Assembly: GCA_041478555.1 (NCBI GenBank)
Contig: JBGOWI010000002.1
Location: 14,622-78,621, forward strand
Length of the DNA: 64,000 nucleotides
Source: Phycisphaerae bacterium
GTDB lineage: Bacteria; Planctomycetota; Phycisphaerae; Sedimentisphaerales; UBA12454
Direction: 5' to 3'
In this document: piece by piece, positions 5,912 to 52,821 of the stretch
Layout: each line of letters begins with the position of its first letter
Position numbering within the stretch: the first letter of the stretch is position 1
The notes under the pieces: generated by a model
What the model was told of the DNA's origin: nothing
Database searches by the model: none
What the model saw: the letters and a program-made list of their open reading frames with translations, nothing else
Made by a program: the position numbers and the translations under genes

Positions 5912-6148
5912 GAAACTGAGAAAGGTCCGGGCCTCGATGTGGCTCGAAGGCACTATAGCAAGCTGCAAAGTGGCGCCGTTACCTGACGCATTAATAAGTA
6001 AATACTGTCATCCTGGTTTGTATTCAGGTTTGTGACAAATAACATAATAGCGGGTTGCCAAACCTCCTTATCGTGGCTAATGAAATAGACTGGACAACTG
6101 ATTCAGATATGTTTTTTTACAGAGCTGCTTTTTTTGAGTTGATTGCTT

Positions 6149-11127: not shown

Positions 11128-11246
11128 ACTCGCTTTAAATTAAACCACGTCTTCGCTTATGGGGAAAGCGGCTGGATTTTGATGGCAATATTGTTAATCT
11201 ACAATTCTTGCGGGATAAAAATTATTTTGGTAACGAAAGGAATGTA

Positions 11247-13451
11247 ATGGGCGGCAGCAGCAACTTAATCGGTCATTTTACTCTTCCAGTCCAAAAGGGA
11301 ATGGATGAAGAAGTACAGATGTTATGTAAGAAATGGGGTGCTGATGCTATCCGTGACAGCGACGGAACCACTTTATCACCGGAAATACTCAATATGGGAC
11401 ATGAGGTCTATTCTACTATTTGTCTTATCAGAGCTGACCAGCAATGGGCTAAAGCTCATCCGGACCAGTGTCAGCAAAAGTATCTTATATCCTTTCCTGT
11501 AAGCTGCCAAAGTGGCGAAGAATTAAGGATTAAAATCCAAAAAGGCTATAGCCATGAGCAGTTCAGGATAGACAGCAAACATGACCCTAAAAAGTATTGG
11601 GAAGTTATCGATAGAACTACCGGCCAAGTCGTAAGCACAAATGATTGGCGATATTTGGAGGCGAGCCAGGAAGTTATTATCCGAAATGCAAAAAGATGGC
11701 ATATTTATACAGTTAATTTTCTCGTCTATCAGATTTGGGAAACCACATCTATGTACAATTATATTACCAATAATTGGACGGGAGAACATCAAATGGGGCT
11801 GGACCCTCGCCAACCACAAACCTGTAAGCACCTGTTGGAGTACCTTGACCAGTGGCTTCAAACCCATCCGAAAACTGATGTTGTTCGCTTTACATCCATG
11901 ATGTATCAGTTTCCCCTGATTAAAAATGAAAACAGGGAAACTGTGTATTTGGAATGGACAGGCTATCTGGACGCTATGAGCGCACTGGCAATGGACGAAT
12001 TTGAAAAAGAAAAAGGCTATCGCTTGCGCAGCGAAGATATTGTAGATGAAGGTTACTTTAATAACTCCTCCAGAGTTCCGAAAAAGGAATTCCTTGACTG
12101 GATAGATTTCGTAAAAAAGTTCGTAAGAGCCTACACAAAGCAATGCGTGGACATGGTTCATAAGTATGGCAAGAAAGCGGTACTGTTCTTCTGCGACCAT
12201 TGGATTGGAACAGAGCCTTATATGGAAGGATTTGCAGGACTCGGATTCGATGGAATAATTGGGCCTTGCTTGAGCGGTGTTGAACTCAGAAGAATTACAG
12301 ATGTACCCGGAAATATGATTAAGGAAGTCAGATTATATCCCTACTTCTTTGCGGTTAATCTTCAGAATGAACCGGTTTTTCAGGAAGGCGGCGACCCAGT
12401 TAAGGAGTGCAGGAAGTGGTGGAAAGGGATTCGAAGGGCTTTGCTGAGGCGCTGTGCGGACCGAATCGGTTTTGGCGGCTATTTGGACCTGGTTGTGAAG
12501 CACCCTGATTTCCTGGACTATGTGGAACAATTGGCTGACGAATTTAGAACTGTACTGTACAGGACACAGAAGACACTTGCCTACAGTATTGGTAAGAAAG
12601 TAGCAATGCTCGATGTTTGGGGAAAAACCCGCTCATGGATGCACAATGACAATTGGCCCGAAGGTCACATCCCGGAGTGTTTGAGCGGCCTGCCGGCAGA
12701 AGTGGAGTTCATCAGCTTTGATGACATACGCAAGAACGGTATCAGTGATGATATCGGCGTAATTATTAATTGGGGCAGGGCCAATAGCGCCTGGAGCGGC
12801 GGCAAGAATTGGATATATCCTGACGTTGTTGAAAAAATCCGACAGTGGGTTTACCAGGGCGGAGGCTTCATAGGTGTCGAAGACCCCACTGCCTGCGAAT
12901 ACCAAGGCAGATTTTTCCAGCTTGCCGATGTCTTAGGTGTTCAAAAGGAAGTTGGAAATACTCTCGGCTGGGGCAGGAACATAAGACCGGCAGTAAATAA
13001 GACGCACTTTATCCTCGAAGATTCTGCAGGTGACCTCGAAGTTGGCGTAAGTAATTCCGCAGTTTACCTTAGTAGTGAAAAAGCAGAATTATTGGCTGGA
13101 ACCCCCGATAAAGTCCTCTTGTCAACTCATACCTTTGGTAAAGGAAGGGCAGTTTACCTGGCGGATTACAAACACAATCCGGAAAATATCCGCATAGTGT
13201 ATCGGGCAATCCTGTGGGCGGCAGGCCTTGAAAATAAACTAAAAATATGGTTTAGTTCCAACTATAATACAGATTGTGCCTATTATCCGCAGGTTAGGGA
13301 ATTTGTCGTTATGAACAACACGGATGTCTCCCAGAAAACAACTGTTTATAATGCAGATGGTAAATCTGCAGATATTTCTTTAAAACCAATGGAAATGAAA
13401 TGGTTTACGTTGGATGAGATAAATCAACGTTGTAATATACGCAAGAGATAG
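11247..13451 (+). CDS. gnpA: GH112 1,3-beta-galactosyl-N-acetylhexosamine phosphorylase (galacto-N-biose/lacto-N-biose phosphorylase)
   Basis: N terminus ..GHFTLPVQKGMDEEVQMLCKKWGADAIRDSDGT.. and a length of ~735 aa match LNBP/GNBP-type enzymes. The track ORF starts at TTG 11208; ATG 11247 has AAAGGA upstream. Confidence 0.75.
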   Translation: MGGSSNLIGHFTLPVQKGMDEEVQMLCKKWGADAIRDSDGTTLSPEILNMGHEVYSTICLIRADQQWAKAHPDQCQQKYLISFPVSCQSGEELRIKIQKGYSHEQFRIDSKHDPKKYWEVIDRTTGQVVSTNDWRYLEASQEVIIRNAKRWHIYTVNFLVYQIWETTSMYNYITNNWTGEHQMGLDPRQPQTCKHLLEYLDQWLQTHPKTDVVRFTSMMYQFPLIKNENRETVYLEWTGYLDAMSALAMDEFEKEKGYRLRSEDIVDEGYFNNSSRVPKKEFLDWIDFVKKFVRAYTKQCVDMVHKYGKKAVLFFCDHWIGTEPYMEGFAGLGFDGIIGPCLSGVELRRITDVPGNMIKEVRLYPYFFAVNLQNEPVFQEGGDPVKECRKWWKGIRRALLRRCADRIGFGGYLDLVVKHPDFLDYVEQLADEFRTVLYRTQKTLAYSIGKKVAMLDVWGKTRSWMHNDNWPEGHIPECLSGLPAEVEFISFDDIRKNGISDDIGVIINWGRANSAWSGGKNWIYPDVVEKIRQWVYQGGGFIGVEDPTACEYQGRFFQLADVLGVQKEVGNTLGWGRNIRPAVNKTHFILEDSAGDLEVGVSNSAVYLSSEKAELLAGTPDKVLLSTHTFGKGRAVYLADYKHNPENIRIVYRAILWAAGLENKLKIWFSSNYNTDCAYYPQVREFVVMNNTDVSQKTTVYNADGKSADISLKPMEMKWFTLDEINQRCNIRKR

Positions 13452-13457
13452 GTCTGA

Positions 13458-15536
13458 ATGATAACGCCTAAAGTTCCAAAGATTATATTTGGCGGAGATT
13501 ACTTTCCTGAACAGTGGCCCCAGGAAATCTGGAAGGAAGATATCCGCCTGATGAAGCAGTCCAATGTAAATATGGTCAGCATTGCCATTTTTACCTGGGC
13601 ACTTCTTCAGCCTGATGAAGATACTTATACCTTTGACTGGCTGGATAAAGTGATGGATCTTATAGCAGAAAATAATATTTATGCCTGTTTAGCCACTTCA
13701 ACGGCAGCTCCTCCTGTCTGGCTGGCCTGTAAGTACAGTGATGTTCTGCCGGTCACAGAATCGGGGCAGAGAATCGATTATGGTTCCCGGCAGGCGTACT
13801 GTATCAACAGCCCTACTTACAGAAAATTCATCCGCAAATTAGCTGAAAAAATGGCCGTCCGTTATAAGGACCACAAGGCATTGGCCTTGTGGCATATCAA
13901 TAATGAGTACGCAAACAAAAACCAAATGTGTTTCTGTGGAAACTGCGAAAAACTTTTTCGAGAGTGGTTAAAGGGAAAATATGAAACCATTGACAGGCTG
14001 AATGAAATCTGGGGTACTGTTTTCTGGGGAGAAAGATACGCTTGCTGGGAGCAGATAAATACGCCCAAGGCCAGTAGCGGCTCAAGGAATTCCACAAAGT
14101 TGCTTGATTATAAAAGGTTCTTAAGTGAAAGCTTTTTTACTCTGTATCTGGAGGAATACAATATCCTCAGACAAATTACGCCGAGTATACCTATTACTAC
14201 TAATTTTGAAGGGGACTGGCGTAAATTTGACCACTCGTTATTCAAAAACCATTTAGATGTGGTCTCGTGGAACTGTTATCCGGACCCGGCCAATCCTGAT
14301 TCGCGCAAATGGGCGGCGCTGCGACATTCTATGATGCGTTCTTTACTGGGCAGGCCATTTATGCTTATGGAACAAGCCCCTTCACAGGTGGACTGGTATC
14401 CGGTGAATATTAATAAACCTCCCGGACTGATGCGTCTGTGGAGTTATCAGGCTCTGGCTCATGGCTCCGATTCGATAATGTATTATCAGTGGCGGGCTTC
14501 CAGAAAGGGCGCTGAGAGATACCACAGTGGTGTAATTCCACATTTCGGTGAAGATTCGAGGGTATTTAAAGAGATATGCAGCTTAGGCAATGAATTGGAA
14601 AAGGCAAAAGATATTGTCGGTTCCGACATAGATTCAAAAGTGGCAATTGTTATGGATAACGATTCATGGTGGGCGATCGATAATCCATACGGTCCTGCCG
14701 GCAGTAAATCCCTTGATAATGAGGTTTTCTGGACCGCCAATGCTCAGCCCTTCCCAACAGTGCTGGTCAGTTATTTTGGCGAGCTGGAATACTATTTTAA
14801 TGCTCTGTATGACCTGAACGTTCCGGTTGATGTTATTCCCGTTCATTATGATTTCTCGAAGTATAAAATCGTTATCGCTCCGCTTCTACATATGATTAAA
14901 CCGGCCTTTAAGGAAGCCGTAGAGAGTTTTGTGAAAAAGGGCGGTATCTTTGTTACGACTTATTTTACAGGGCTGATTGACGAATCTGTAGGCGTATATC
15001 TGGGCGGCTACCCCGGACCGCTGAAAGATGTTATGGGTATCAAGGTTGAAGAATACAACCCATTACCGCCTGGCAGCAGGAACACAATGAAAATGACTGC
15101 GACGCTCAACGGTTTTAAAAAAGATTACGGCTGTTCAGTATGGTGCGATGTCATCCATACGACAGGTGCGAAGGTGTTGGCAGCATTTGCAAATGATTAT
15201 TATGCCGGCAGTCCGTGTTTTACTGAAAATCAGTTTGGAAATGGAAAAGCCTACTATGTAGGTACCAGGCCGGATGAAGATTTTATGAGAGATTTCTTTA
15301 CGAAAATTTTAAAGGAGCAGGAGATTGACTTGCCCGATTTGCCCCAGGAAGTCGAGTTGATGACCAGGTCCAAAAAAGGCAAGTCCTATTGTTTTTACCT
15401 GAATTATGGAGAAAATGAAAAGACAATAAAGCTACCCTCAGGCAGATACGAAGATATACTAACAGGAACTATCTGTGAGCGAACGCTGACTTTGGCTAAA
15501 TATGGTGTATCCATTTTAAGGAGCAAATGGCGTTGA
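13458..15536 (+). CDS. GH42 beta-galactosidase, cytoplasmic
   Basis: GGDYFPEQWPQEIWKEDIRLMKQSNVNMVSIAIFTWALLQP and WHINNEY are GH42 hallmarks; length 692 aa. Confidence 0.88.
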   Translation: MITPKVPKIIFGGDYFPEQWPQEIWKEDIRLMKQSNVNMVSIAIFTWALLQPDEDTYTFDWLDKVMDLIAENNIYACLATSTAAPPVWLACKYSDVLPVTESGQRIDYGSRQAYCINSPTYRKFIRKLAEKMAVRYKDHKALALWHINNEYANKNQMCFCGNCEKLFREWLKGKYETIDRLNEIWGTVFWGERYACWEQINTPKASSGSRNSTKLLDYKRFLSESFFTLYLEEYNILRQITPSIPITTNFEGDWRKFDHSLFKNHLDVVSWNCYPDPANPDSRKWAALRHSMMRSLLGRPFMLMEQAPSQVDWYPVNINKPPGLMRLWSYQALAHGSDSIMYYQWRASRKGAERYHSGVIPHFGEDSRVFKEICSLGNELEKAKDIVGSDIDSKVAIVMDNDSWWAIDNPYGPAGSKSLDNEVFWTANAQPFPTVLVSYFGELEYYFNALYDLNVPVDVIPVHYDFSKYKIVIAPLLHMIKPAFKEAVESFVKKGGIFVTTYFTGLIDESVGVYLGGYPGPLKDVMGIKVEEYNPLPPGSRNTMKMTATLNGFKKDYGCSVWCDVIHTTGAKVLAAFANDYYAGSPCFTENQFGNGKAYYVGTRPDEDFMRDFFTKILKEQEIDLPDLPQEVELMTRSKKGKSYCFYLNYGENEKTIKLPSGRYEDILTGTICERTLTLAKYGVSILRSKWR

Positions 15537-16663
15537 TTGGCCAAGTGAAGAAGATTATGAAATCAAAACAATACTTTTTTTTGACGATTATGATTTTATG
15601 CATTACTCAAACTGTTGCTGCGAAAGATTTTCTCATCGGTGCGGATATATCGGCGTTGACGGTGCTTGAGGAAACTGGTGCGGTGTATCGCGAGAACGGC
15701 GGGCCGAATGACCTTATTGCTATTTTAAAGAATAACGGGTTTAACACTGTACGGCTGCGTCTGTTCGTAAACCCGGACAAAAAAGGTGTTGTTACAAATG
15801 ACTTGCCTTATACCCTGAACCTTGCAAAGAGGGCCAAAGCTCACGGCATGAAATTGTTGTTGGATTTTCATTATTCAGACACATGGGCAGACCCCCAGAA
15901 ACAGAGCAAACCTGCGGCTTGGGAAAACATGTCCTTTGAAGAACTGAAACAAACAGTGCAAAGCTATACTGCCTCTGTCATAAAAGCCTTCAAAAATGAA
16001 AATGTACTTCCGAACATTGTGCAAATTGGTAACGAAATTACCCCAGGTATGCTTTGGCCCGATGGGAAAGTCAGTGAAAAATATGACAATGAACTTCAAT
16101 GGGAGAAATTCAGCTCTTTGCTTAAGGCTGGCATTGCCGGCGTCCGGGCAGCAGCCCCCGATGCCGACCTGAAAATTATGCTTCACATCGATCAGGGTGG
16201 CAAAAAAAGCGTTAGTCAATGGTTTTTTAGCAACATTAATAAGCATAAGGTTCCTTACGATATTATTGGTATAAGTTACTATCCCTGGTGGCACGGGACA
16301 ATTGAAGACCTCAAGGAAAACCTGAACTACATTGCCATGGAACTCAAGAAAGACGTAGTGATTGTGGAAACAGCCTACCCGCATACCACGGATAAATGGT
16401 ATGAACACCCTGAGGAACTGCCATATCCAATGACGCCCCAGGGACAATATGATATGCTTCACATAATTACAAAGACGGTACTCGAAACCCCTGATAAACG
16501 CGGTTGCGGAGTATGCTACTGGTTTCCGGAGTCAGTGCCGGTTGCAAAGCATAATTGGCTGGGAGGTTCTGCCGCTCTGTTTGACTCTGACGGAAATTCG
16601 CTGGCTGGTATCCATGCTTTTGCCGATGCGGCCGGTTCAAGGCAATTCAAAAAAAAGCGGTGA
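15527..16663 (+). CDS. Secreted GH53 arabinogalactan endo-beta-1,4-galactanase
   Basis: Signal peptide ..MKSKQYFFLTIMILCITQTVAA. GADISALTVLEETGAVYRENG, VRLRLFVNP, VQIGNEI and VETAYP are GH53 motifs. AGGAG lies upstream of 15527; an alternative start is 15557. Confidence 0.85.
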   Translation: MALIGQVKKIMKSKQYFFLTIMILCITQTVAAKDFLIGADISALTVLEETGAVYRENGGPNDLIAILKNNGFNTVRLRLFVNPDKKGVVTNDLPYTLNLAKRAKAHGMKLLLDFHYSDTWADPQKQSKPAAWENMSFEELKQTVQSYTASVIKAFKNENVLPNIVQIGNEITPGMLWPDGKVSEKYDNELQWEKFSSLLKAGIAGVRAAAPDADLKIMLHIDQGGKKSVSQWFFSNINKHKVPYDIIGISYYPWWHGTIEDLKENLNYIAMELKKDVVIVETAYPHTTDKWYEHPEELPYPMTPQGQYDMLHIITKTVLETPDKRGCGVCYWFPESVPVAKHNWLGGSAALFDSDGNSLAGIHAFADAAGSRQFKKKR

Positions 16664-17753: not shown

Positions 17754-17962
17754 GTCAAAAAAGCGTCGGTCGCCACCGGTAAACCACTCCAGTTTCTAAC
17801 TTGTTACTCACTTGTCAACCACTTGTAAGTCTCATTTTTGACCAAAAAACGCGATATTTTTTCCCGTCTGCCAAAGCACACATCATCAGGAGTTACATTG
17901 CCGATGGCTTCATGGTATTGCCGGCTGTTGTACCACTTTACGAACCCGGCAATTTCTGTGTC
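17754..17962 (-). mobile_element. IS remnant: the last ~50 codons of a DDE (rve) transposase plus the element end
   Basis: Minus-strand translation reads ..[52 protein letters not shown], a typical rve C-terminal tail. No upstream catalytic part is present. 17754-17857 is repeated at 28823-28915. Confidence 0.75.
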
Positions 17963-18355
17963 AGAGACATAACTACTGCCGCCTATCCGGACTGCCGGGT
18001 CAGTTTCGAGGCTGCTCGCGGCCAGATACTTGGTTTTGCCGGTCTGGTTGGTGCGGGTCGAGGCGAAATGGCTCGTGCTGTCTTTGGTGTTGATCAGGTA
18101 CTGTCCGGTTCGATTACCTTAGTCGGTCGTGAACTGCAAATTTGCTTTGCTAAAGATGCTATTAAAAACGGAATCTATCTTGTGCCGGAAAACCGTAGAA
18201 AACCAGGTCTTGTTGTTGAAATGTCTTTCCGAGAAAACATAACGCTTTCCGATTTTGAAAGCCATGCTGCGATTGGCTTGATAAAAGGCCGGCTGGAAAC
18301 CATCACAGCTCGGTCCCAATCTGAAGCGCTAAGTATTAAAGTGCCGTCTGTTGAA
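17963..18355 (+). pseudogene. Internal fragment of a sugar ABC importer ATPase (RbsA/MglA-type second NBD)
   Basis: ..[55 protein letters not shown].. lacks an N-terminal NBD, and an LSGGNQQK signature is missing after ~18355. Track ORF 17801-18472 is a chimera of this fragment and the antisense IS tail. Confidence 0.7.
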
Positions 18356-18468
18356 ACTTTGTTTTTGGATATGGCGAAAATAGTGTTTAGCGAAACAGGT
18401 GCACTACCAGATTATTCCGGTGCAGTAGAAATTCTCACTCGGCTGAACAAAGTTGACCGGCATTATGA

Positions 18469-18864
18469 TTAGGGCAACGGGGGTGTTACCCAGCCTGTTT
18501 TGACGCTGTAAATAAAACTGCCTCTCGAACGAGTGCTGATATAAACGCAGTGGTTATGGACAGCGAAAGTGGCTTCGATTTTGTTGCTGTCTGGCGTTTT
18601 AATCTGCACCGCACCGTATTGTGCCAGACTGTTTCGCATCTCAGTTCCAAGCTGCAATATTTGTTCGTCAGAAAAACCTGCCCGCCGCATTATTTGCACA
18701 ATATCTTCGGCATTCAAGGCTATAATGTCCCGATTGCTTAAAGGCATAAGCCTAAGCCCGGTATTTGATAACCTTGTGGACTCGCAACTGACCAAAATGA
18801 CTACACCTGTCAACAAAATCAAAATGAAAACAACATTTGTCAACTTATGCCTAATCGGTTTCAT
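18469..18864 (-). CDS. Small lipoprotein, last gene of the secretin operon (pilotin candidate)
   Basis: The signal ends in lipobox ..VVILVS|C (Cys27). It starts 20 nt after the secretin stop on the same strand. No recognisable family. Confidence 0.7.
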   Translation of the reverse strand: MKPIRHKLTNVVFILILLTGVVILVSCESTRLSNTGLRLMPLSNRDIIALNAEDIVQIMRRAGFSDEQILQLGTEMRNSLAQYGAVQIKTPDSNKIEATFAVHNHCVYISTRSRGSFIYSVKTGWVTPPLP

Positions 18865-18884: not shown

Positions 18885-21800
18885 TTATTTATTTAATTGT
18901 TCCTCAAGCTTCTGCTTGAATTCATCTCCAACAGACTCTATTGGCTTTTGTTCTTCGGTTGGCAACCCTGACAGTCGTGACCTCACCTCAGGATCCGGTA
19001 TCAAATGTGCTGTAACAAATATAGCCACTTGTTGAGAAGCTTCCCGATTGGTCTCATTGCGGAACAGCCCTCCCAGTCCTGGCACACGGGAAAGACCCGG
19101 TACGTTCTGTTTGGTTGAGTAGGTCTCGCTCTTTTTAAGGCCTGCTACAGTAACTGTTCCACCATCCTGGATTCGCATGGTATTTTTGACCGTGCGTCTG
19201 CTGACAACCGGGTAATTATCAGTACTACGCATTACAATGTCACTAACCTCAATAGCCAGGTCAAGCGTGATATCGCCGTTTTCTCCGATATGAGGAGTGA
19301 TATTTAATATAGTTCCATATTCAATCTTTTCCAATTCTGCAGGGTTGTAGTAGTAAGGAGCACCTTCCATAGCCTTTGGCAGCAAAGAATAGTATTCCTC
19401 GGTAGTAATTTTAATTTCAGCCTGTTTACCGTCCTGCGCAAGGACCTGAGGACTTGACACTATTGTTGCTTCACCATTTTGCTCAAGAAGGTTCAGAGTT
19501 AATTCCAGCGAATTCGTAAATTCCTGATTCGTTGCATATCCGATCTGGATACCCCATGGCCACTTGGAGCCGACGCCAGCACCGCCTCCATGTATATACG
19601 AACTGGAGAAAATACCGGCCTTAATCTTTGGCCAGCCCCATTCAATACCGAGGTCCAGCAGGTCACTGTTTTGCATTACGACAATTCGGGCATCAAGCAT
19701 AATATGACTTGGTGCTTTGTCAATTTCTTTGAGGTCCGTTTCTATACGCTCTATCAAAGCAGACGGCGCCGTAACACAAATGGTTCCAGTATCAGGATAA
19801 GCCTGGACGTAATTGGCAAAGACAGGTGATAGAAGTTTTACAGCTATATCAGCCTTGAGATAATTTAACTTTATGGACTTTGTCCGGCTTGAAGCCGGAA
19901 AAGCAGCGTCTTTCGGATTAGGTGAGCTGACCAGGTAGTAATCTGGTGTCTTCTTCAGTACATAGCCAGTACCAGCCAGAACTATCTCAAGGGCTTTATC
20001 AAGCGGTACCTCCTTAAGCTCGCAGGTAATCAGGCCAGAAATAGTCTGGTCGGGAATGATTATAATTCCCGCCTGCGAGGCAATGTCCTGCAGAACCTGA
20101 CGCAACTCAGTATCAACAAACACGTTGCTTATGAGAGGTTGCTGAGGTGCCGGCTTTTCAGGAATTTCTGTTGTTTTTTCCTGCTGTTTTTGCGGTTCTG
20201 TAGCTGTTTCAGTTGTTAAATTTGTCGGGGCACCTTCCTCGCTCTTAAGTTGCTCTGGCTGTGATTCTTCAACTTTCGGTTCGGCAGCGGGCTCAGTAAT
20301 GGGTTCAGTTTCTGGTTCCATTACTTGCTCAGTTTGTGAATTAACTTCGGGTACAGCTTCCGGTTCCGCTGTCGCTTTGCTAACTTCCGAGCCCTTAGTT
20401 TTCTCAGGCAGAGGCTTCTGCTCTTCAGTAATTACCTCTTCTTTTTTCTGCTGCTCTGCAGTTTCCTGCTGTTGAGGAAGCTTTGGTGTTTCTTCTTCCT
20501 TTTCGACGATATTTGAAGTAACATTGATATATCTCTTGCTGGGCGGTGAGAACATATAACCTGCTTTTGTTGGCGTAACTGTTCCGGACCAGCCATAGTC
20601 GACGGTTAAATGATATTCACCATTGGCATTAGTCGTATCGGAGCTTCCGCCATTGTCGGCTGATACCAACACTCCTTCAGTAGGCACGCCGTCAAAGATA
20701 ATTTTACCTGAGATGGTACAGATAATTAAGGTGGCGTTGTAGTTTTGATTGCTCAGATTCTCTATCACTTTGCGATATTCTTGCTTTGGAGCTTCGAAGG
20801 TATAACCGTCCTTGATGGGTGTAATCGTGCCGCTCCAGCCATGCTTAACCAGAAGCTCATACTGACCGTTCGCATTGGTTTTTGCCGAACCTCCCGCATT
20901 GCTTGCGTTTATTGAAACATCCTCAACGGGTTTTTGACCGCGGGTAACCGCGCCGGCAATGGCATAGGTCAGTATCTGAGCCTGATAGTTCTGCGGCTGG
21001 TCTTCCGCAACTTTTGGGTATATTTTTTTGGCTGGTTCGAAAATGCAGCCTTCTTTTACAGGTGTAACTGAACCGCTCCATCCATAATCGACAATAGCGC
21101 TGTAATAGCCTTCTTCATTGGTAATCGGCTCTCCCGGCAAACCCTTCATGACAACGCTGCTTATCGGCGTATCAGCGGCTATTTTGCCGGATATGATAAA
21201 GCTCATCAGCTCCGGAGTATGGTTCCGCACCTGATTTTCTGTTACAGACTCATATATTCTATTGGCAGGATTGAAGCGATAGCCTTCCTTTGTCGGCGTA
21301 ACGGTGCCGCTCCAGCCATAGCCGACCGTTGCAGCGTACTGGCCGTTAGCGTCAGATGTTGGATTACCTGGCAGACCTTCCATTACCACGCCGTCAATAC
21401 CGACCGAGCCGGAAACAGTATAAGTAAGCAGCTTTGCGGTATAGTTCTGAGTCTGATGCGTGGTAACGGGCTCGTATTTTTTGTTAACCGGTTCAAAGTT
21501 ATAACCCTTCTTTGTTGGCGTAATGACACTGCTCCAGCCGTAGTTGACGGTCGAGCTGTAATAGCCATTCTCATTGGTAACCGGATCGCCCGGCAGCCCA
21601 TACATAACTACGCCGCCTAAAGGTGAGTCGCCGATTGTAATTGTACCGGAGACAGTGCACGTTAATATTTCTGCGGTATAGTTCTGATTGTCTATGCTTG
21701 TTGTAACCTCAGTATATTTGCGGCTTGAGAGGTCAAAAGTATAACCTTCTCTTTTCAGAGTAACTTCGCCGCTCCAGCCGTAATTAATTGAAATAGTATA

Positions 21801-22454
21801 CCGTCCTTTTTCATTGGTTGTGGCTGAACCGCCGCTGTTGTTGGCCGAAACAGATACGCCTTCCATCGGAACACCGCCTATGGTTACTATCCCGGAAATA
21901 GCAAAGCTCAACAGTGAGCTGGTGTAGTTTTGGTTGGCCTCCGGACGGGTTATGTTTGCATAAGTGCGGTTGGCCGGCTTGAACACATATCCTTCTTTTA
22001 TCGGCATAACCGTGCCACTCCAGCCGTGTCCGACAAGGGTATTATAGTTGCCGTCTTTGTCGGTTACCGGCTCGCCCGGCAGCCCACTCATTACCACACC
22101 GCTGGTGCCCACTGAACCGGAAATCTGGTAATTAATCAGCGAAGCTGTGTAGTTCTGGGCGGTTTGGTCGGCAGTAACAGGTTCATACTTTTTGCTGCTT
22201 GGCTCGAAGTTATAACCTTCTTTTGCCGGCGTTACCGTGCCGGACCAGCCATATTCGATTGTGACGCTGTAATTGCCTTTGTCATCGGTAACAGGATTAC
22301 CGGGGAGGCCTTTCATTACGACGCCATCCAGACCTGCTGTGCCTGAAATAGTGTAGGTTATTTTTGTCGCTTTGTATCCGAAACACAAAGTGCTATTGAG
22401 AAGGACACAAAGGACCAATCCGACGCTTAAAATTTTAACTGTATTTTTTGGCAT
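18885..22454 (-). CDS. Atypical secretin: signal peptide, 8 beta-sandwich repeats, acidic P/E/T/Q linker, N0/STN-like domain, secretin N-domain and C-terminal secretin domain
   Basis: The C-terminal ..GGTVTVAGLKKSETYSTKQNVPGLSRVPGLGGLFRNETNREASQQVAIFVTAHLI is a secretin hallmark. RQVLQDIASQAGIIIIPDQTISGLITCELKEVPLDKALEIVLAGTGYVLKK is STN/N0-like. IKLNYLKADIAVKLL..ICVTAPSALIERIETDLKEIDKAP is Secretin_N-like. Confidence 0.88.
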   Translation of the reverse strand: MPKNTVKILSVGLVLCVLLNSTLCFGYKATKITYTISGTAGLDGVVMKGLPGNPVTDDKGNYSVTIEYGWSGTVTPAKEGYNFEPSSKKYEPVTADQTAQNYTASLINYQISGSVGTSGVVMSGLPGEPVTDKDGNYNTLVGHGWSGTVMPIKEGYVFKPANRTYANITRPEANQNYTSSLLSFAISGIVTIGGVPMEGVSVSANNSGGSATTNEKGRYTISINYGWSGEVTLKREGYTFDLSSRKYTEVTTSIDNQNYTAEILTCTVSGTITIGDSPLGGVVMYGLPGDPVTNENGYYSSTVNYGWSSVITPTKKGYNFEPVNKKYEPVTTHQTQNYTAKLLTYTVSGSVGIDGVVMEGLPGNPTSDANGQYAATVGYGWSGTVTPTKEGYRFNPANRIYESVTENQVRNHTPELMSFIISGKIAADTPISSVVMKGLPGEPITNEEGYYSAIVDYGWSGSVTPVKEGCIFEPAKKIYPKVAEDQPQNYQAQILTYAIAGAVTRGQKPVEDVSINASNAGGSAKTNANGQYELLVKHGWSGTITPIKDGYTFEAPKQEYRKVIENLSNQNYNATLIICTISGKIIFDGVPTEGVLVSADNGGSSDTTNANGEYHLTVDYGWSGTVTPTKAGYMFSPPSKRYINVTSNIVEKEEETPKLPQQQETAEQQKKEEVITEEQKPLPEKTKGSEVSKATAEPEAVPEVNSQTEQVMEPETEPITEPAAEPKVEESQPEQLKSEEGAPTNLTTETATEPQKQQEKTTEIPEKPAPQQPLISNVFVDTELRQVLQDIASQAGIIIIPDQTISGLITCELKEVPLDKALEIVLAGTGYVLKKTPDYYLVSSPNPKDAAFPASSRTKSIKLNYLKADIAVKLLSPVFANYVQAYPDTGTICVTAPSALIERIETDLKEIDKAPSHIMLDARIVVMQNSDLLDLGIEWGWPKIKAGIFSSSYIHGGGAGVGSKWPWGIQIGYATNQEFTNSLELTLNLLEQNGEATIVSSPQVLAQDGKQAEIKITTEEYYSLLPKAMEGAPYYYNPAELEKIEYGTILNITPHIGENGDITLDLAIEVSDIVMRSTDNYPVVSRRTVKNTMRIQDGGTVTVAGLKKSETYSTKQNVPGLSRVPGLGGLFRNETNREASQQVAIFVTAHLIPDPEVRSRLSGLPTEEQKPIESVGDEFKQKLEEQLNK
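20505..22364 (-). repeat. Eight tandem ~78-aa coding repeats (CarboxypepD_reg/prealbumin-like beta-sandwich) in the secretin N-terminal region
   Basis: Signature [IL]xYx[IV]SG....GVxMxGLPGxPVTxxxGxYxxxVxYGWSGTVTPxKEGYxFxPxxxxYxxVxxxQxNQNYTA is seen 8 times (aa ~31-650). Confidence 0.85.
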
Positions 22455-22456
22455 AT

Positions 22457-24127
22457 TTAGCCCCCTTTAATAATAGGCTCAATAACTTCAACAATTCTCT
22501 GGCCACCTCTGCCAGAGACTTGTATGGGTACTATTTTGGTTGCTTTTCCGCCGCCGCCATGCTGCATAATTGCCTCGAGACGATATACGCCGGCAGCGAT
22601 TCCGGAAAAATCAAGTATTCCGGAGAAGTTTCTGATTTCAAGCGGCAGCATAAGACCTGTCTCGCCGGTCAGTAATATGCTTTTCACCATCGTGCCTTGA
22701 GGCGTTGTGAGTTCGGCTGTGCATCGTGGGCTCAGATGTATCGTTCCTATATTGCCGAATCTGCCGATGATTGCATAGCGGGAATTTCCTTCATCAGCAA
22801 CCGTTACCTTCATTGCCTGAGCAATAGGCTGAGCTTTCTGCTGTTTGTTCTCAAGGCACAGTATCGCATTTGTCAGGCCGGCGTTCTGACCGTCAGTGCT
22901 GTATTTGGCTGACAGTGTAATATCCGAATAATAATTGCTTTTCATTGATTCTGCCCTGGGCATATTTGTAACAATGCGAACGCCCTGCGAAGCACCAGGC
23001 CTGAGCGTGAATTTGTCGGGAACAACCTTGACCCATTCGGAACAAACCAGCTCCTCACCCTGCAGCTCGCCGAAGGCAACGCCCTTCAAAACGGCCGGCG
23101 TTGTCGCAGCAGCCACAATATCAATGGTGCTGTCCGAGGCATTTCGAACCTTTAGTACCGCCGACCGTGTTGCCCCGGGTGCGATGCTTATGAACAGCTC
23201 CGGCGGTTCCAAATCGAGCGCCGCATCAGCAGCAGCTTTCTTAATAGCCGGGTCGCCAACAAAGTCTATCTCTTTCTCAATAGGTTTTGCTCGTCTTCCA
23301 TCTATGTAAAGTTTGCCGTTTAATTTGTATTTCCCCGACGGCAGCGACCGGCCTATATCACTTTTTAAATCCAAGGTTATGCCGGGAATAATTCCGACTT
23401 CCTTGATTTTTGCGGTAGTGATGTTGCGCCAATGGCCGCCGGAGAATACCTGAGCGGTTATACCGCCGGTAAGACGTGAAAATTTTTTGCCGTTGTTTTC
23501 TACCTTCATTGACAGAAGGGTTGTTGCGGCTGATTGTTCGGCTGGCATTTTAAACTGCATATCGACATCGGTCAGCTCCACCTTCTGGAGCATTGTGCGG
23601 CCCTGTATCTCGACAAGAATTGGGATTAAAAACCGTATGATTATAGCGCTGCCGTTTGCATCCGGTTTTGGTCTGGTCTGGATAGTTATACCAGCGATGT
23701 AAAATCCCTGGGCGCGAGAAGGCACTCTAACGGCAAATTCGACTGCTCCTCCGGAAAGAGGTGCAAGTTTTATGCTGTCATTTTTAAGTTTTATCCATTC
23801 TCGACAGGAAGGAACTTCGGACGTGTTAACATCAGAACCCTGTTCGATAACTCTCGGACTGCCGTCTTCAGATTGAGTTATATCGACTACGCCTATGTCC
23901 ATTGTCATTACCTTGTTAGGCTCTTCATTTAGGACATGTATAACTTGTGTGATTTTATTGCCGGCATACGGTTCAAGTTCTATCTTCATAGGCCTGACAC
24001 GAAACTTGTCGGCCCAGGTCAATGGTGCCAAGTAGAGAACAACGGCAAGAGCACACAGCCTCCACAGTGTGTAGTAGTTATAAATCGTCAGAACCTCATT
24101 TTTCTTCTGAGCTTTCATATCACCCAA
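22457..24127 (-). CDS. Secreted 556-aa protein made of an internally duplicated two-domain beta-rich unit (Ig-like; PapD-chaperone/DUF916-like by pattern)
   Basis: Signal ..LCALAVVLYLAPLTWA|DKF. Unit 1 is aa ~45-290 and unit 2 aa ~300-556. The units share ..C[RS]EW[IV]K...D.[IF].L.P......V...V..P.. and a second domain ending in G.Y.L.. . Its stop lies 2 nt before the secretin start. Confidence 0.8.
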   Translation of the reverse strand: MGDMKAQKKNEVLTIYNYYTLWRLCALAVVLYLAPLTWADKFRVRPMKIELEPYAGNKITQVIHVLNEEPNKVMTMDIGVVDITQSEDGSPRVIEQGSDVNTSEVPSCREWIKLKNDSIKLAPLSGGAVEFAVRVPSRAQGFYIAGITIQTRPKPDANGSAIIIRFLIPILVEIQGRTMLQKVELTDVDMQFKMPAEQSAATTLLSMKVENNGKKFSRLTGGITAQVFSGGHWRNITTAKIKEVGIIPGITLDLKSDIGRSLPSGKYKLNGKLYIDGRRAKPIEKEIDFVGDPAIKKAAADAALDLEPPELFISIAPGATRSAVLKVRNASDSTIDIVAAATTPAVLKGVAFGELQGEELVCSEWVKVVPDKFTLRPGASQGVRIVTNMPRAESMKSNYYSDITLSAKYSTDGQNAGLTNAILCLENKQQKAQPIAQAMKVTVADEGNSRYAIIGRFGNIGTIHLSPRCTAELTTPQGTMVKSILLTGETGLMLPLEIRNFSGILDFSGIAAGVYRLEAIMQHGGGGKATKIVPIQVSGRGGQRIVEVIEPIIKGG

Positions 24128-24555: not shown

Positions 24556-25065
24556 TTACAGATTGTCATTCACAGTCAGCAATACTGTTGCGACCCGCTG
24601 AACGTGAGGACTTGAAGGTATGTAAGTAATGTCCACGTTGTTCACTGCTGCGCCGACATAAAATATCCTGCCGACCGGTGGCGGGGCGGGAATATCAAAT
24701 GCCATCTCATCAGTATCATCTTCCAGTATCCACTCAGCTCTGTTCTGAGGCAAATTCTGCGGATAGTCGGCAAGAGCAACCAGATACTTTGCAGTTGGTC
24801 CCAGTGATGGACCGAAGGGGACTATCATAACTGTAACCAGAACCGGAAAGTTATGCGTCATAGTTACGGCAGTATAGCCACGGTAAAGCGGATGAACACC
24901 AGATGGGTCGCCGAGTGTAAGTAGTATTTCTGCCGGGTCAATTGTAAGGATTACTGTTTTGTCAATCAGCATCACAACAGGAATTTGCGCTTGAGCCAAT
25001 ATCCCACCAGCAAATGCCGGAGCTGCTGTCAAAGCAATTGCTGCTAATGTCAGTATTTTTTTCAT
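24556..25065 (-). CDS. Small secreted beta-rich protein, putative fibre subunit (paralog of 25982-26488)
   Basis: Signal MKKILTLAAIALTAAPAFA|GG. The mature protein begins with an alternating hydrophobic stretch (IPVVMLIDKTVILTIDP) and ends VATVLLTVNDNL. It is collinear with its 168-aa paralog. Confidence 0.8.
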   Translation of the reverse strand: MKKILTLAAIALTAAPAFAGGILAQAQIPVVMLIDKTVILTIDPAEILLTLGDPSGVHPLYRGYTAVTMTHNFPVLVTVMIVPFGPSLGPTAKYLVALADYPQNLPQNRAEWILEDDTDEMAFDIPAPPPVGRIFYVGAAVNNVDITYIPSSPHVQRVATVLLTVNDNL

Positions 25066-25746: not shown

Positions 25747-25786
25747 ATAAAAAAGCAGGAAGGACTAATTACTTAGCCCTTCCTGC
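25747..25786 (-). terminator. Rho-independent terminator after the 168-aa subunit gene
   Basis: The minus strand reads GCAGGAAGG-loop-CCTTCCTGC followed by TTTTTTA. Confidence 0.8.
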
Positions 25787-25981
25787 TTAAACTTTTTCAG
25801 ATTGCAGGATTTTTTAAAATCCTACCCTCTTTGCCGCATCATTGCAGCCGCTTACTGTTCATACTGCAGAGTACTTATTTCCTGCAGATGAAACAACGTT
25901 GTTACATCCGTTACGAACTTTACATTTTACCCTTGTATCCTCCGAAGCTTTAGCGAAGGAGGGTAACAATACTCCTGCTCT

Positions 25982-26488
25982 TTACAGATTGTCACTTACT
26001 GTCAGCAATACTGTTGCAACCTGCTGAGCAGCAGGACTTGAAGGTATAAAGCCAATGTCCACATTAGCTACTGCTGCACCGACATAAAATAGCCTACCGG
26101 CTGGCGGGGCGGGAGTCGTGAAGTCCATGTCGTCGGTATTGCCTGCTGCTTGCCACCCAACGTACGTTTGAGGCAAATTAATCGGGAAGTCGGCAAGAGC
26201 GACATGATATGTGGCAGCTGCTCCCAGTGATGGACCGAAGGAGTTTATCAATGCTGTAACTGTAACTGGGAAGTTATGCGTCATAGTTACGCCAGTATAG
26301 CCACGATAAAGCGGATTACCTAAATTCGGGTCGCCTATCGTAAGTAATATTTCTGGCGGGTCGACTGTAAGGTTTACGGTCTTGTCAATCACCATCATAA
26401 CAGGAATCTGCGTTTGGGCTAATATCCCGCCGGCGAATGCCGGAGCTGCTATCAAAGCAATTGTTACTAATATCAGTAATTTTTTCAT
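25982..26488 (-). CDS. Small secreted beta-rich protein, putative fibre subunit (paralog of 24556-25065)
   Basis: Signal MKKLLILVTIALIAAPAFA|GG. THNFPVTVTALI and a C-terminal VATVLLTVSDNL are shared with the paralog. Confidence 0.8.
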   Translation of the reverse strand: MKKLLILVTIALIAAPAFAGGILAQTQIPVMMVIDKTVNLTVDPPEILLTIGDPNLGNPLYRGYTGVTMTHNFPVTVTALINSFGPSLGAAATYHVALADFPINLPQTYVGWQAAGNTDDMDFTTPAPPAGRLFYVGAAVANVDIGFIPSSPAAQQVATVLLTVSDNL

Positions 26489-26841: not shown

Positions 26842-27264
26842 TCAGGGTTCAGCCATTATGGTAATGACCAGAGTGCCTGTATATTCTCCTGCCGAGTCGC
26901 TGGATTTGATATCAATAGTGAACTTTAGATTTATATCCACATCGACGCCTTCAGGAGGAGTGCCTGACGAGACTAATGGCGGCACCATTTCAACATTGGT
27001 TCTTTCCTTCGGAATAAAACCTCCGGCAGGACTTGCAAACGCTCCTCCGATTGATGCGATGATACGATGAGGACAATTAGCGGTTATATGTACTTTTATG
27101 GTGGAATTAAATGTTTGCTGACCATACTGGCTGGCACTGCCGAGGTCGATTTTGTCGGGTACGGAGATGCTGGCGAACGGTTCTGCCTGTAGAGTAGTTC
27201 CTCTCCCCAGGCAGAATACTAAAATTACTGCCACAAATAGTATTATGTATCCACTCCGTGCCAT
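26842..27264 (-). CDS. Small secreted protein with SCPU/fimbrial-subunit-like features
   Basis: The track ORF starts at 27279; ATG 27264 has GGAGGAGCGAAGG upstream and matches the paralog start. Signal ..ILVFCLGRGTTLQA|EP. IKVHITANCPHRIIASIGG and the C-terminal SAGEYTGTLVITIMAEP resemble spore-coat-U/Csu-type and type-1 pilin ends. Confidence 0.75.
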   Translation of the reverse strand: MARSGYIILFVAVILVFCLGRGTTLQAEPFASISVPDKIDLGSASQYGQQTFNSTIKVHITANCPHRIIASIGGAFASPAGGFIPKERTNVEMVPPLVSSGTPPEGVDVDINLKFTIDIKSSDSAGEYTGTLVITIMAEP

Positions 27265-27387
27265 CCTTCGCTCCTCCATATATTTATCCTGTTTTTTCCT
27301 TTCTTTAGTTGAAACGTTACATTTTCAAGGTTGAAATTGCCGATAATACAAAAACTTATGCTCGTTAAACCATTTCTTATAGGACTT

Positions 27388-27415
27388 ATTTTACCAGCCT
27401 TCTTTAAATTGTCAA
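27388..27415 (-). promoter_or_regulatory. Sigma70-like promoter of subunit cassette 2
   Basis: The minus strand reads TTGACA-16 nt-TAAAAT, within a block conserved with 25406-25440. Confidence 0.45.
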
Positions 27416-27723: not shown

Positions 27724-28410
27724 TCAAGAATTAGAGTTGTTAGCATCATCCACAAAAAACTCGTTTTGGCTCAACCTCTCGAAAAAATCATTTTCTTGGG
27801 ACAGAGTCTCGTTTTGCTCCGTAAGCATCGTGTTCTCATCGGCCAGATGAGTAGTTTTCTCCGCAAGAGATGCATTTTCCGCTGTGAGCCTGTTATTTTC
27901 TGCGCTTAGCTGCTCTATCCTGATACAGTACTCTCTTGCAGCCTTTCTGATTTGGTCGTTCAGTATTTCGATTCTCTCTGTAAGTTTTTGATTTTCCTCG
28001 GTAATTGTTTGATTGCCGGCTGCCAGTGTTTCTGTCTGGCCGATGAGTGTTTCGAGCTGATTTTCGAGTGTTTCAATTTGGCTAACAAGTTCCTGATTTT
28101 CACTTAAAAGCTCGGCATTCTGGCTGGAGAGGGTATGACTCTGGGTTTCAAATTCCTCAGCAAGCATCCGGGCTTTCTTCTGTTCGAGGCTCAGGTGTTC
28201 ACTTAACTTTTGTTTTTCCATCTGTAGATGGCTGATGGTCTGAATCATTGTCTGTCTTTCTTTGAACAGCAATGCGGCAGCGCCGGTTAAAGCAAGCAAA
28301 ATTACCGTCAGCAAAGATACCACAATAACTCTGCGCCCCAGGCCTGATTTGTGCATTCTTTTGCCGTCTTCGTTAGACGATGTATCAAATGTATTTTCAC
28401 TGAAATCCAT
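27724..28410 (-). CDS. Bitopic membrane protein with a ~170-aa coiled-coil ectodomain
   Basis: One TM segment (VIVVSLLTVILLALTGAAALLF) is followed by heptad-rich Q/E/N/L sequence (..ENQELVSQIETLENQLETLIGQTETL..). Confidence 0.7.
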   Translation of the reverse strand: MDFSENTFDTSSNEDGKRMHKSGLGRRVIVVSLLTVILLALTGAAALLFKERQTMIQTISHLQMEKQKLSEHLSLEQKKARMLAEEFETQSHTLSSQNAELLSENQELVSQIETLENQLETLIGQTETLAAGNQTITEENQKLTERIEILNDQIRKAAREYCIRIEQLSAENNRLTAENASLAEKTTHLADENTMLTEQNETLSQENDFFERLSQNEFFVDDANNSNS

Positions 28411-35016: not shown

Positions 35017-35760
35017 ATGAAGAAACTAATTGTTTGTTGTTTTATGTTGGTTGTGTTAAGCATGCCAGCATATGCGGATTTCACTGTGACGACAATTGCC
35101 GACCTGTCTGCATGGCCGGATTCGCCGCAGGTTAAATGCACAGTGAATCCTGGCACTGACACCACACCCGCCAACGGCCAACCCTATTCGCCAGAGCAGA
35201 ACTGGGGTGGTGGCGCTCTGCAGCAGCTTGGTCAGGTTTTTATGGTTCCCAGCTCGTACATCGGAACTCCAACATTGGACAAGGTTGCCGTTAAACTCAG
35301 CGGTACTGCTGGCACCTTGAGCGTCAAGTTGTATGACCTTTGGCCGGGAGACTTCAATGATAATTTCCACGGATGGGGCAATGGCAACCAGGGGACCTTG
35401 AGTCCTGTTAACCTTACGACCAACGCGACTCTCTTGATTAACGACACGTGGGCTTATCCAGGCAGTGCCACCGCGAAGGTGTATCTGTTGGATTTCACTG
35501 GCAGTCAAGAGGTAGCACTTGCGTATGCTGAAAAGTATATGTTCGTACTGGATCATGATAATACTTTTCAGGTGTCGTGGTACCGCAATGGCCTCTATAG
35601 CTACACCGATGGTGATGTGTATAGAGACACCGGCGCGGGTACTACTATGCAGTATGTCAATGGTGCTGGCCGCGAGGCCGGTATGGCTGTCTATATTCCC
35701 GAGCCGGCGACTATCGCTCTGTTAGGTCTTGGACTGGCTTTGCTCAGGAAGCGCAGCTAA
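35017..35760 (+). CDS. Secreted PEP-CTERM-anchored protein (unassigned beta-rich ectodomain)
   Basis: Signal MKKLIVCCFMLVVLSMPAYA and C terminus IPEPATIALLGLGLALLRKRS. A strong RBS taaggaggag is present. Confidence 0.9.
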   Translation: MKKLIVCCFMLVVLSMPAYADFTVTTIADLSAWPDSPQVKCTVNPGTDTTPANGQPYSPEQNWGGGALQQLGQVFMVPSSYIGTPTLDKVAVKLSGTAGTLSVKLYDLWPGDFNDNFHGWGNGNQGTLSPVNLTTNATLLINDTWAYPGSATAKVYLLDFTGSQEVALAYAEKYMFVLDHDNTFQVSWYRNGLYSYTDGDVYRDTGAGTTMQYVNGAGREAGMAVYIPEPATIALLGLGLALLRKRS

Positions 35761-48101: not shown

Positions 48102-48161
48102 TTTGTCCTTTTCTACCGGTAGCAATTGCCGTTCAAATCTGCTTCAAGGGTCAATCCTGAA

Positions 48162-49445: not shown

Positions 49446-49455
49446 CTGTCCTTTT

Positions 49456-52638: not shown

Positions 52639-52821
52639 TCCTCACTCCTAAAAAAGATGAGCCAGCGAGTTTAGCTACAAAGTTTAACTACAAAATAGTA
52701 TACTTGGTTTGTCCCCTAAAATCAAGGTTTTTTGCCATTTTGCGGAGTTTTTTGCGGGCAGAATAGGCAGAAATCAGCTAAAAAAGAAGATTATGCCTTC
52801 TTTATTTCACTTCATTTGATT

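Follow-up and report, generated by a model that had tools for sequence, protein, structure and literature searches.

A secretin with an eight-repeat N-terminal arm in a conserved gene cassette of Phycisphaerae (Planctomycetota)

To our knowledge, secretins are known only from ATP-driven machines, namely type II and type III secretion systems, type IV and Tad pili and filamentous-phage export, and their N-terminal decorations have so far been limited to N-domains and AMIN domains. In PilQ, AMIN domains are followed by a linker and N0, and the layout of GspD has N1 to N3; we know of no GspD with an array of beta-sandwiches. Here we describe a secretin gene on a 64,000-nucleotide stretch of DNA (hereafter the window, to which all unprefixed coordinates refer; contig JBGOWI010000002.1 of assembly GCA_041478555.1, positions 14,622 to 78,621) from a Phycisphaerae bacterium of the Sedimentisphaerales. 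Its product consists of a signal peptide, eight repeats, an acidic linker and a PilQ-like core (N0/STN, one N1 and the pore), and the gene is one member of a cassette that recurs across related genomes. The family is large and widespread in uncultured polysaccharide-degrading Planctomycetota, and it would combine a new secretin decoration, an eight-domain rod on a leash, with a new, motor-less set of partners: pilin-like Sec substrates, a protein of immunoglobulin-like (Ig-like) domains with a predicted WxLIP/PapD-like fold, and a private lipoprotein.

The secretin gene and its repeat arm

The gene is a single open reading frame on the reverse strand that starts with ATG, has zero internal stops and encodes 1189 amino acids (aa), and a database protein (P0001) is 100% identical to the product. 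The initial annotation of the window had proposed a secretin with an N-terminal extension of ~770 aa; the protein is indeed a secretin, and the extension is real. Its parts, with the signal peptide recognized by eye from a basic n-region and a hydrophobic core without canonical lipobox, are as follows:

18885..22454 (−): secretin gene, complete open reading frame (open reading frame listing; Pfam Secretin, E 4e-38; >100 full-length colinear homologues)
22377..22454 (−): Sec signal peptide, aa 1-26, probable cleavage between CFG and YK (read from the sequence)
20502..22355 (−): eight tandem repeats R1-R8, aa 34-651 (repeat alignment, Pfam clan matches)
22131-22355 (−): R1, aa 34-108
21906-22130 (−): R2, aa 109-183
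21660-21905 (−): R3, aa 184-265
21423-21659 (−): R4, aa 266-344
21201-21422 (−): R5, aa 345-418
20967-21200 (−): R6, aa 419-496
20721-20966 (−): R7, aa 497-578
20502-20720 (−): R8, aa 579-651
20139..20501 (−): low-complexity acidic linker rich in Glu, Pro, Thr, Gln and Lys, aa 652-772 (composition, charge, poor conservation)
19905..20138 (−): N0/STN-like domain, aa 773-850 (Pfam STN, PilQ model alignment)
19707..19883 (−): single N1-type domain (Secretin_N), aa 858-916 (Pfam PF03958)
18999..19490 (−): secretin pore domain, aa 989-1152 (Pfam PF00263, E 4e-38)
18888..18998 (−): C-terminal tail, candidate pilotin-binding S-domain helix (tails of 13 homologues)

The repeats are 73-82 aa long (n=8), in agreement with the eight ~78-aa units placed earlier at aa ~31-650, and they abut directly, zero linker residues lying at the domain boundaries. 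Pairwise identity averages 46% in protein and 55% in DNA (DNA maximum 67%), and BLASTP recovers all 28 of the 28 possible pairs with E-values from 1e-33 to 7e-15. Their consensus, YTISG..VP..GVVM.GLPG.P.TN.NG.Y..TV.YGWSGTVTP.KEGY.FEP..K.Y..VT..Q..QNYTA.LL, reproduces the signature first noticed, YGWSGTVTPxKEGYxFxP...QNYTA, and the alignment refines it in that R3, R7 and R8 share an insertion ('ANNSGGS.TTN' loop). When repeats were compared across species, the best match was found at the same position for 62% of R1, 61% of R7 and 86% of R8, against 12.5% expected by chance, and R2-R6 were nearly interchangeable. The repeats are acidic (isoelectric point about 5), and conservation is concentrated on glycines, prolines and aromatic residues, as is typical of a fold core.

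A beta-sandwich fold had been suggested for the repeats, and the Pfam matches point the same way, lying just under the cut-off in the window protein and above it in two homologues. In the window protein, CarboxypepD_reg (PF13620) scores 32.2 bits (E 1.4e-7) vs a cut-off of 32.3 and CarbopepD_reg_2 (PF13715) scores 30.6 bits (E 3.6e-7) vs a cut-off of 32.2, with further matches to TTR_TEN1-4, GldM_3rd and MetallophosN; CarboxypepD_reg reaches 33.0 bits in homologue P0030, and CooC_C (PF15976) reaches 35.7 bits vs a cut-off of 29 in homologue P0005. We take the families matched, including CooC_C and CarboxypepD_reg, to form one clan of transthyretin-like beta-sandwiches, and CooC_C to be the C-terminal domain of the CS1-pilus usher. 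At the level of the family, it is well supported that the repeats would fold as beta-sandwiches of this CarboxypepD_reg/transthyretin-like clan.

Profiles built from 8 and then from 44 repeat sequences gave only weak matches to PDB sequences, the best for the 44-sequence profile being NOMO2 of the BOS complex (9c7v_B, E 0.006). NOMO1 is described as a 'beads on a string' rod in which at least eight Ig-like domains span 24-27 nm; this rod sets the intermembrane distance of the endoplasmic reticulum, such that a lengthened rod leads to a wider lumen (PMC8327139). The repeat also occurs outside secretins: P0020 (1792 aa), the one protein among the best 120 database matches that is no secretin, carries 19 copies of it, followed by a Por_Secre_tail sorting domain of the type IX secretion system, and because of this tail we read P0020 as a cell-surface protein in which the repeat would act as a stalk.

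The segment between the arm and N0 had been described as rich in Glu, Pro, Thr and Gln at aa ~651-772, which its composition confirms: the 122 residues at aa 651-772 (nt 20139-20504) include 31 E, 16 P, 15 T, 15 Q and 13 K, and the net charge of aa 652-772 is about −17. The length of this linker in relatives ranges from 51 to 246 aa (median 104), and therefore the total reach of the arm is not precisely fixed.

Beyond the linker, the C-terminal 420 aa make up a PilQ-like secretin core. The pore domain at aa 989-1152 scores 131 bits vs a cut-off of 27.5, and Secretin_N at aa 858-916, the only domain of this type detected in the window secretin, scores 29.0 bits vs a cut-off of 28.2; STN/N0 at aa 798-844 scores 24 bits, under the Pfam cut-off of 28.4, with a weak match to type_II_gspD_N0. 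Both domains that characterize the secretin superfamily, N0 and N1, were thus found, STN reaching 39 bits in the divergent cassette relative L087 described below. The NCBIfam model of PilQ (TIGR02515) aligns colinearly over aa 777-1152 with 145.2 bits, below its cut-off of 284.35, and that of GspD (TIGR02517) scores 136.4 bits, below its cut-off of 351.35. Among the 24 solved secretins matched in the PDB, the closest are PilQ structures (4av2/9sh1, E 2e-24), and Pfam gave zero matches to AMIN in the window secretin. At the C-terminus, the tails of 13 homologues end in a conserved motif, [DG][DE]F[KR]xxL[RK]ESL, and the motif is tandemly duplicated (..DQFE.RLRESL..) in P0069, P0078 and P0088.

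Homologues and repeat number

A homologue search returned 1400 matches, of which the best 120 were taken, and 119 of these are secretins of 1118-1333 aa that align colinearly over their full length. They come from metagenome-assembled genomes of Sedimentisphaerales, Phycisphaerae and Planctomycetota and are called, where named at all, 'hypothetical protein' or 'GspD'. The named relatives, being Sedimentisphaerales/Phycisphaerae, agree with the Planctomycetota lineage to which the initial annotation had appealed; the taxa are the record-title labels of the assembled genomes and possibly unreliable (e.g., 'uncultured Pirellulales', one 'Aegiribacteria' and one 'Verrucomicrobiota'). In addition, a scan over one genome per GTDB species yielded 122 relatives, and 80 loci were kept, including 72 complete eight-repeat secretins.

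Counted with a hidden Markov model (HMM) of the repeat, the copy number is exactly eight in 119/119 homologues from the best 120 of 1400 matches, at 38-84% identity, and again exactly eight in all 72 of the complete repeat-bearing secretins among the 80 genome loci. The repeat number is all-or-none, 0 or 8, and no locus has 1-7 or more than 8. Taken with the low DNA identity among the copies, this presence of eight copies in every complete repeat-bearing relative upholds the earlier view that the repeats are old. In 39 diverse members, mean pairwise identity is 47-57% for R1-R8, 59% for N0, 52% for N1, 59-63% for the segment aa 921-988 together with the pore domain, and 23.5% for the linker. 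The repeats are conserved comparably to the pore core, and the linker is not conserved.

These comparisons bear on whether the architecture is an artefact, i.e., two genes joined by a frameshift or mis-assembly, or a recent expansion of repeats, which we consider practically negligible. The reading frame is uninterrupted, the identical architecture occurs on nearly 200 independent contigs from many studies, and the repeats are only 55% identical in DNA. With the frame intact, P0001 identical and the same eight-repeat layout in the genome loci of relatives, a fusion of two open reading frames, which the initial annotation had named as a possible refutation, was rejected.

Four loci carry short secretins (459-597 aa) in the same cassette that lack the repeats altogether:

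L074:3659-5143: repeat-less secretin
L077:663-2060: repeat-less secretin
L078:6025-7404: repeat-less secretin
L082:1998-3791: repeat-less secretin

Each consists of a signal peptide, a short spacer, N0, N1, the pore and the same tail motif, and the lipoprotein, the small proteins and the four-Ig protein are retained at all four loci. The four short forms make up one clade, nested beside that of the window, when the core is placed in a neighbour-joining tree (midpoint-rooted, without support values); this suggests that the repeats were lost in them. Since repeat-less secretins occur in the same cassette, the arm is an accessory module and not the core mechanism, and the idea that the repeats are the core of the mechanism was rejected. 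A more divergent cassette, L087:7289-13138, encodes in order a 203-aa protein, a 553-aa four-Ig protein, proteins of 212 and 230 aa, a 564-aa secretin in which STN directly follows the signal peptide, and a 117-aa lipoprotein; its three small proteins share a C-terminal 'PG.Y.A...V' strand. Its flanking genes (EPSP synthase, hisD, UPF0262, infA, maf, RNase E/G) look alphaproteobacterial to us, and the cassette system may extend beyond Planctomycetota.

The cassette and its partner proteins

The cassette runs along one strand, with one to three small Sec-exported proteins followed by the four-Ig protein, the secretin and a small lipoprotein. In the window it comprises, besides the secretin, the following:

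27724..28410 (−): 228-aa protein, N-terminal transmembrane helix and ~180-aa coiled coil (coiled-coil Pfam matches)
27388..27415 (−): best sigma-70-like promoter match, TTGACA-16-TAAAAT, 11/12, upstream of the 145-aa gene (consensus scan)
26842..27279 (−): 145-aa small secreted protein, A-type, predicted pilin-like beta-sandwich (AlphaFold2, Foldseek)
25982..26488 (−): 168-aa small secreted protein, B-type (Sec signal peptide, B-type HMM)
25753..25788 (−): intrinsic-terminator-like hairpin, 16-bp stem with T tail, ~200 nt past the 168-aa gene (consensus scan)
24556..25065 (−): 169-aa small secreted protein, B-type (Sec signal peptide)
22457..24127 (−): 556-aa secreted protein of four predicted beta-sandwich (Ig-like) domains (AlphaFold2, Foldseek)
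18469..18864 (−): 131-aa lipoprotein, probable pilotin, with lipobox LVSC (gene 20 nt past that of the secretin)

Synteny was counted with our own HMMs on the 80 loci, taking as denominators the loci with enough flank. The 556-aa family lies directly upstream of the secretin in 69/73 loci and the lipoprotein family directly downstream in 73/75; A-type or B-type small proteins are found in 55 of 57 loci, B-type in 52 of 57. No open reading frame with a GspE/PilB/PilT-type Walker A motif was found within ±10 kb in 80/80 loci, no pilMNOP or gsp genes adjoin the secretin in any of the 80, and no ATPase or platform gene was found across the 64-kb window. Pfam and NCBIfam gave no match at threshold for any cassette partner protein, and Rfam detected no RNA family in the 64-kb window.

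The stop codon of the 556-aa gene lies 2 nt before the secretin start codon. The AlphaFold2 model of its product (predicted local distance difference test score, pLDDT, 88; predicted template-modelling score 0.80) has four beta-sandwich domains, and its two halves (~42-277 vs ~304-525) align with an HHalign probability of 95% (E 2e-8); an old duplication within the gene, of a two-domain unit resembling WxLIP, gave rise to them. The best Foldseek matches are Enterococcus faecium WxLIP structures (9i1y/9i25, free and WxL-bound; E 8e-11, template-modelling (TM) score 0.55 over ~264 columns), and the others are PapD-like/ASH domain arrays. By sequence profile, EfmWxLIP1 was matched weakly in the PDB (E 0.03), and PF06030 scores 23.4 bits vs a cut-off of 27.3, the C-terminal transmembrane helix being absent. 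One homologue carries the Joint Genome Institute (JGI) label 'PapD chaperone'. It has been proposed that WxLIP holds small WxL partners by inserting a beta-hairpin strand (PMC10599100).

All the small partners carry Sec-type, not prepilin-type, signal peptides. For the 145-aa protein, whose family numbers 79 representatives at 50% clustering, AlphaFold2 predicts a six-strand sandwich (pLDDT 90.7), and the top 50 Foldseek matches are mostly chaperone-usher pilins, at modest scores (E about 1e-3, TM 0.4-0.5), including CsuA/B (6fq0 and 7zl4), CfaB (4y2l), FimA/F/G, the PapG pilin domain and CS17. A few members of the family also show weak matches to DUF4402, CblD and Dr_adhesin. The 168-aa and 169-aa proteins are paralogues with 70% identity, and a possible relation between A-type and B-type proteins has an HHalign probability of 24% (E 8.5e-4). 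The small genes are flanked by intergenic gaps of unusual length (350-920 bp), which together with the promoter-like site and the terminator-like hairpin would fit separately and highly expressed structural subunits.

In the lipoprotein family the lipobox Cys is invariant, and ~90 aa form a conserved domain. The family has no match in Pfam or NCBIfam and no similarity to known pilotins, and its profile retrieved from the PDB only a spurious match to tandem RecA fusions. By analogy with pilotin-dependent secretins, it may form a putative pilotin pair with the tail motif of the secretin. The 228-aa gene stands at the head of the cassette in the clade of the window alone, namely in L004/L014 (homologue 58% identical) and in L007; its coiled coil, ~27 nm if continuous, makes the protein a possible inner-membrane partner for the rod, though not a general one.

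Outside the cassette, the flanks differ in all five loci with gene calls, and those of the window contain clusters of carbohydrate-active enzyme (CAZyme) genes; a linkage of the cassette to these clusters was rejected, the flanks not being conserved in the five loci. The remaining features of the window that we noted are listed below, where GH stands for glycoside hydrolase family.

1126..1740 (+), 35017..35760 (+) and 38440..39192 (+): three proteins ending in PEP-CTERM sorting motifs, one of them also with CBM4_9
5033..5911 (+): lone 292-aa prepilin-type protein (N_methyl, E 5e-8) adjoining a Laminin_G_3 protein, unlinked to the cassette
6143..16663 (+): CAZyme cluster for galactan/lacto-N-biose, with GH2, GH35, lacto-N-biose phosphorylase, GH42 and GH53
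17801..18472 (+): 223-aa open reading frame that abuts the lipoprotein gene at its 3' end, starts with TTG and matches ABC_tran only weakly and in part; probably either spurious or a fragment of a gene
32168..34423 (−): 751-aa membrane protein, N-terminally of the PMT_2 glycosyltransferase type, with a long array of tetratricopeptide repeats
46275..60837 (−): CAZyme cluster for xylan, with two GH10, a GH30-like protein and four tandem paralogous CBM4_9 proteins

The three PEP-CTERM proteins imply that the genome has an exosortase system.

Possible roles and comparison with known systems

The reading that we favour, tentatively, is that the small proteins are exported through the secretin as a surface fibre or complex, with the arm acting as a rigid stalk or spacer. 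In this scheme, the small proteins would cross the inner membrane by Sec, be handled in the periplasm by the four-Ig protein and leave through the secretin to form the surface fibre or complex, and the lipoprotein, as pilotin, would bind the C-terminal helix of the secretin and bring it to the outer membrane. Beneath the N0 ring, each of the ~12-15 protomers would carry one rigid eight-domain rod of ~25-30 nm, a length scaled from the ~3 nm per domain of NOMO, with the tether as an entropic leash. Specific contacts might be made by the tip (R1) and the base (R7-R8), whose domains are distinct, and in envelopes of the Phycisphaerae type the rod might thereby link the pore to layers deeper in the envelope, be it the inner membrane, the cell wall or a partner there. 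We read the arm as a stalk or spacer because of its invariant domain number, its lack of inter-domain linkers, its conservation at the level of the pore, the positional identity of R1, R7 and R8 across species, the NOMO match and the stalk-like use of the repeat in P0020. The domain number, the lack of linkers, the NOMO match and P0020 also favour, indirectly, the long reach into the periplasm that the initial annotation had proposed.

Several points weigh against this reading. How the rod folds, how rigid it is and how long are deduced from family membership; once the signal peptide has been cleaved, it lacks a membrane anchor, and any partner of its tip domain is hypothetical. The five-fold variation in tether length argues against a precise ruler, and the polarity of gain and loss of the repeats hangs on a midpoint-rooted neighbour-joining tree that lacks support values. 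The small proteins are putative substrates only, their polymerisation is conjectural and the Foldseek matches are modest (E about 1e-3, TM 0.4-0.5); genes for an ATPase or an inner-membrane platform could lie in another part of the genome.

A bolder version, which we regard as possible but doubtful, is that the cassette encodes an ATPase-free 'chaperone-secretin' pathway for a surface fibre or complex, which would parallel the chaperone-usher pathway. Pilin-like subunits would then be held through beta-strand complementation by the four-Ig protein, a duplicated WxLIP/PapD-like partner, and would be polymerised or released via the secretin in place of an usher, with the eight-domain arms of Phycisphaerae (12-15 protomers) as a periplasmic device for capture and hand-over. 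Because versions with short secretins exist, e.g., L087, such a pathway would reach beyond Planctomycetota.

Other explanations concern the arm itself or the system as a whole. As the initial annotation had considered for peptidoglycan or glycans, the eight domains might be an anchor that binds peptidoglycan or another periplasmic polymer, with the tether folding back as in the AMIN region of PilQ. This would suit a protein whose core is most similar to PilQ and whose order of accessory domains, linker and N0 mirrors the AMIN-linker-N0 arrangement, the more so as AMIN and CarboxypepD_reg are alternative N-terminal modules of TonB-dependent transporters (PMC6434023) and the repeats, like AMIN, are dispensable in some lineages. 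However, the repeats match no known peptidoglycan-binding family, their conserved residues are those of the fold core, and both the repeats and the strongly charged linker are acidic. Moreover, wall-binding modules that work by avidity usually vary in copy number, whereas here the number is invariant at eight, and we consider such an anchor rather unlikely. The N- and C-terminal periplasmic domains of ushers recruit subunit complexes and hand them over, and the tethered domains might in the same way be a docking arm that recruits complexes of the four-Ig protein with pilin-like subunits and feeds them to the pore. The CooC_C match of homologue repeats, above cut-off in P0005, points in this direction, as do the resemblance of the 145-aa neighbour to chaperone-usher pilins, including class 5 (CfaB, CS17) and archaic Csu, the conservation of the repeats as strong as that of the pore, and the resemblance of the 556-aa neighbour, with its one homologue labelled 'PapD chaperone' by JGI, to PapD-like/ASH domains and to the strand-inserting WxLIP (PMC10599100). 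Yet the match to the usher is unspecific, because CooC_C, CarboxypepD_reg and the other families matched share one Pfam clan, and cassettes with repeat-less secretins keep the same partners, so that docking cannot depend on the arm; a docking role is therefore unlikely in our view.

The secretin might instead be an ordinary one of a type IV pilus or type II system whose ATPase, platform and pilins are encoded elsewhere, with the neighbouring genes as passengers. PilQ and GspD are indeed the best NCBIfam models (145 and 136 bits), pilQ is often unlinked to pilB and pilT, and the window contains the lone prepilin-type gene at 5033..5911. Nevertheless, these scores are far under the cut-offs of 284 and 351, and pilMNOP or gsp genes adjoin the secretin in none of the 80 loci, where the same four tightly spaced partner families, foreign to type IV pili, are syntenic (69/73 and 73/75); furthermore, the small partners have signal peptides of the Sec type. 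An ordinary secretin is accordingly decidedly unlikely.

If the rod is a spacer, as in the reading that we favour, it would give direct molecular access to how machines are placed across the unusual envelope of planctomycetes. Pilus-like subunits in a conserved gene set without a motor protein hint at a so far undescribed route to surface fibres, and if the cassette does assemble fibres, it would represent a new class of pilus or secretion system and could identify the genes for surface fibres in the phylum.

Among known systems, PilQ is the closest by sequence. It is likewise an outer-membrane secretin with N0, a single N1 and a pore, and its accessory N-terminal domains sit on a long disordered linker before N0 and are absent in some relatives. 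By contrast, the secretin described here has no AMIN but a fixed set of eight CarboxypepD_reg-like domains, scores under the family cut-off, and has neither pilMNOP neighbours nor prepilin-type substrates nearby; the four-Ig protein, the pilin-like Sec substrates and the lipoprotein take their place. With GspD it shares the secretin domain, N0/STN and a pattern of lipoprotein pilotin and S-domain, suggested here by the tail motif and the lipoprotein, and it differs in the one Secretin_N domain detected, the absence of a gsp operon and a score under the cut-off.

The N-terminal extensions of TonB-dependent transporters lie in the periplasm. CarboxypepD_reg, STN and AMIN are all found as N-terminal modules of these outer-membrane proteins (PMC6434023). 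The transporters with CarboxypepD_reg (Oar/SusC) and those with STN (FecA) resemble the present protein in carrying either module type N-terminally on an outer-membrane channel. However, theirs is one domain only, on a plugged barrel of 22 strands, and here there are eight, with a tether of ~120 aa, on a multimeric secretin. NOMO, the best PDB profile match of the repeat, is similarly a run of Ig-like domains that forms a rod spacing membranes, but it is a eukaryotic protein of unrelated function that a transmembrane helix holds in place, and the similarity is weak and at the level of the domain family only.

The partner proteins invite comparison with two other systems. Chaperone-usher pili (Fim/Pap, class 5 CFA/I-CS1 and Csu) also have Sec-exported small beta-sandwich subunits, whose pilin fold is paralleled here by a predicted one, with a C-terminal G.Y.G...v.v strand, an Ig-like periplasmic partner and no ATPase, and CooC_C belongs to the clan to which we assign the repeats. 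The outer-membrane component here is a secretin, though, and donor-strand exchange would be hypothetical; no cassette protein has a Pfam match to the usher barrel (PF00577) or to the PapD family (PF00345/PF02753). The 556-aa protein is structurally closest to WxLIP of the WxL clusters of Firmicutes, and a typical cluster of this kind, with one WxLIP and two small WxL partners (PMC10599100), parallels the cassette with its one four-Ig protein and two or three small proteins. Unlike those clusters, the cassette belongs to a diderm organism and includes a secretin and a lipoprotein besides; its Ig unit occurs twice and has no C-terminal transmembrane helix, and none of its small proteins matched a WxL domain.

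Our literature searches on secretin architectures and on the nearest analogues found no description of the eight-domain arm or of the cassette, and no Pfam or NCBIfam family model covers the eight-repeat architecture; the possibility raised in the initial annotation, that this is an already catalogued subclass, found no subclass, model or paper to bear it out. Taken together, what is already known is the use of such modules as periplasmic decorations of outer-membrane channels, and what is new is the placement of eight CarboxypepD_reg-like domains and a tether before N0, the strict domain count and the set of partners.

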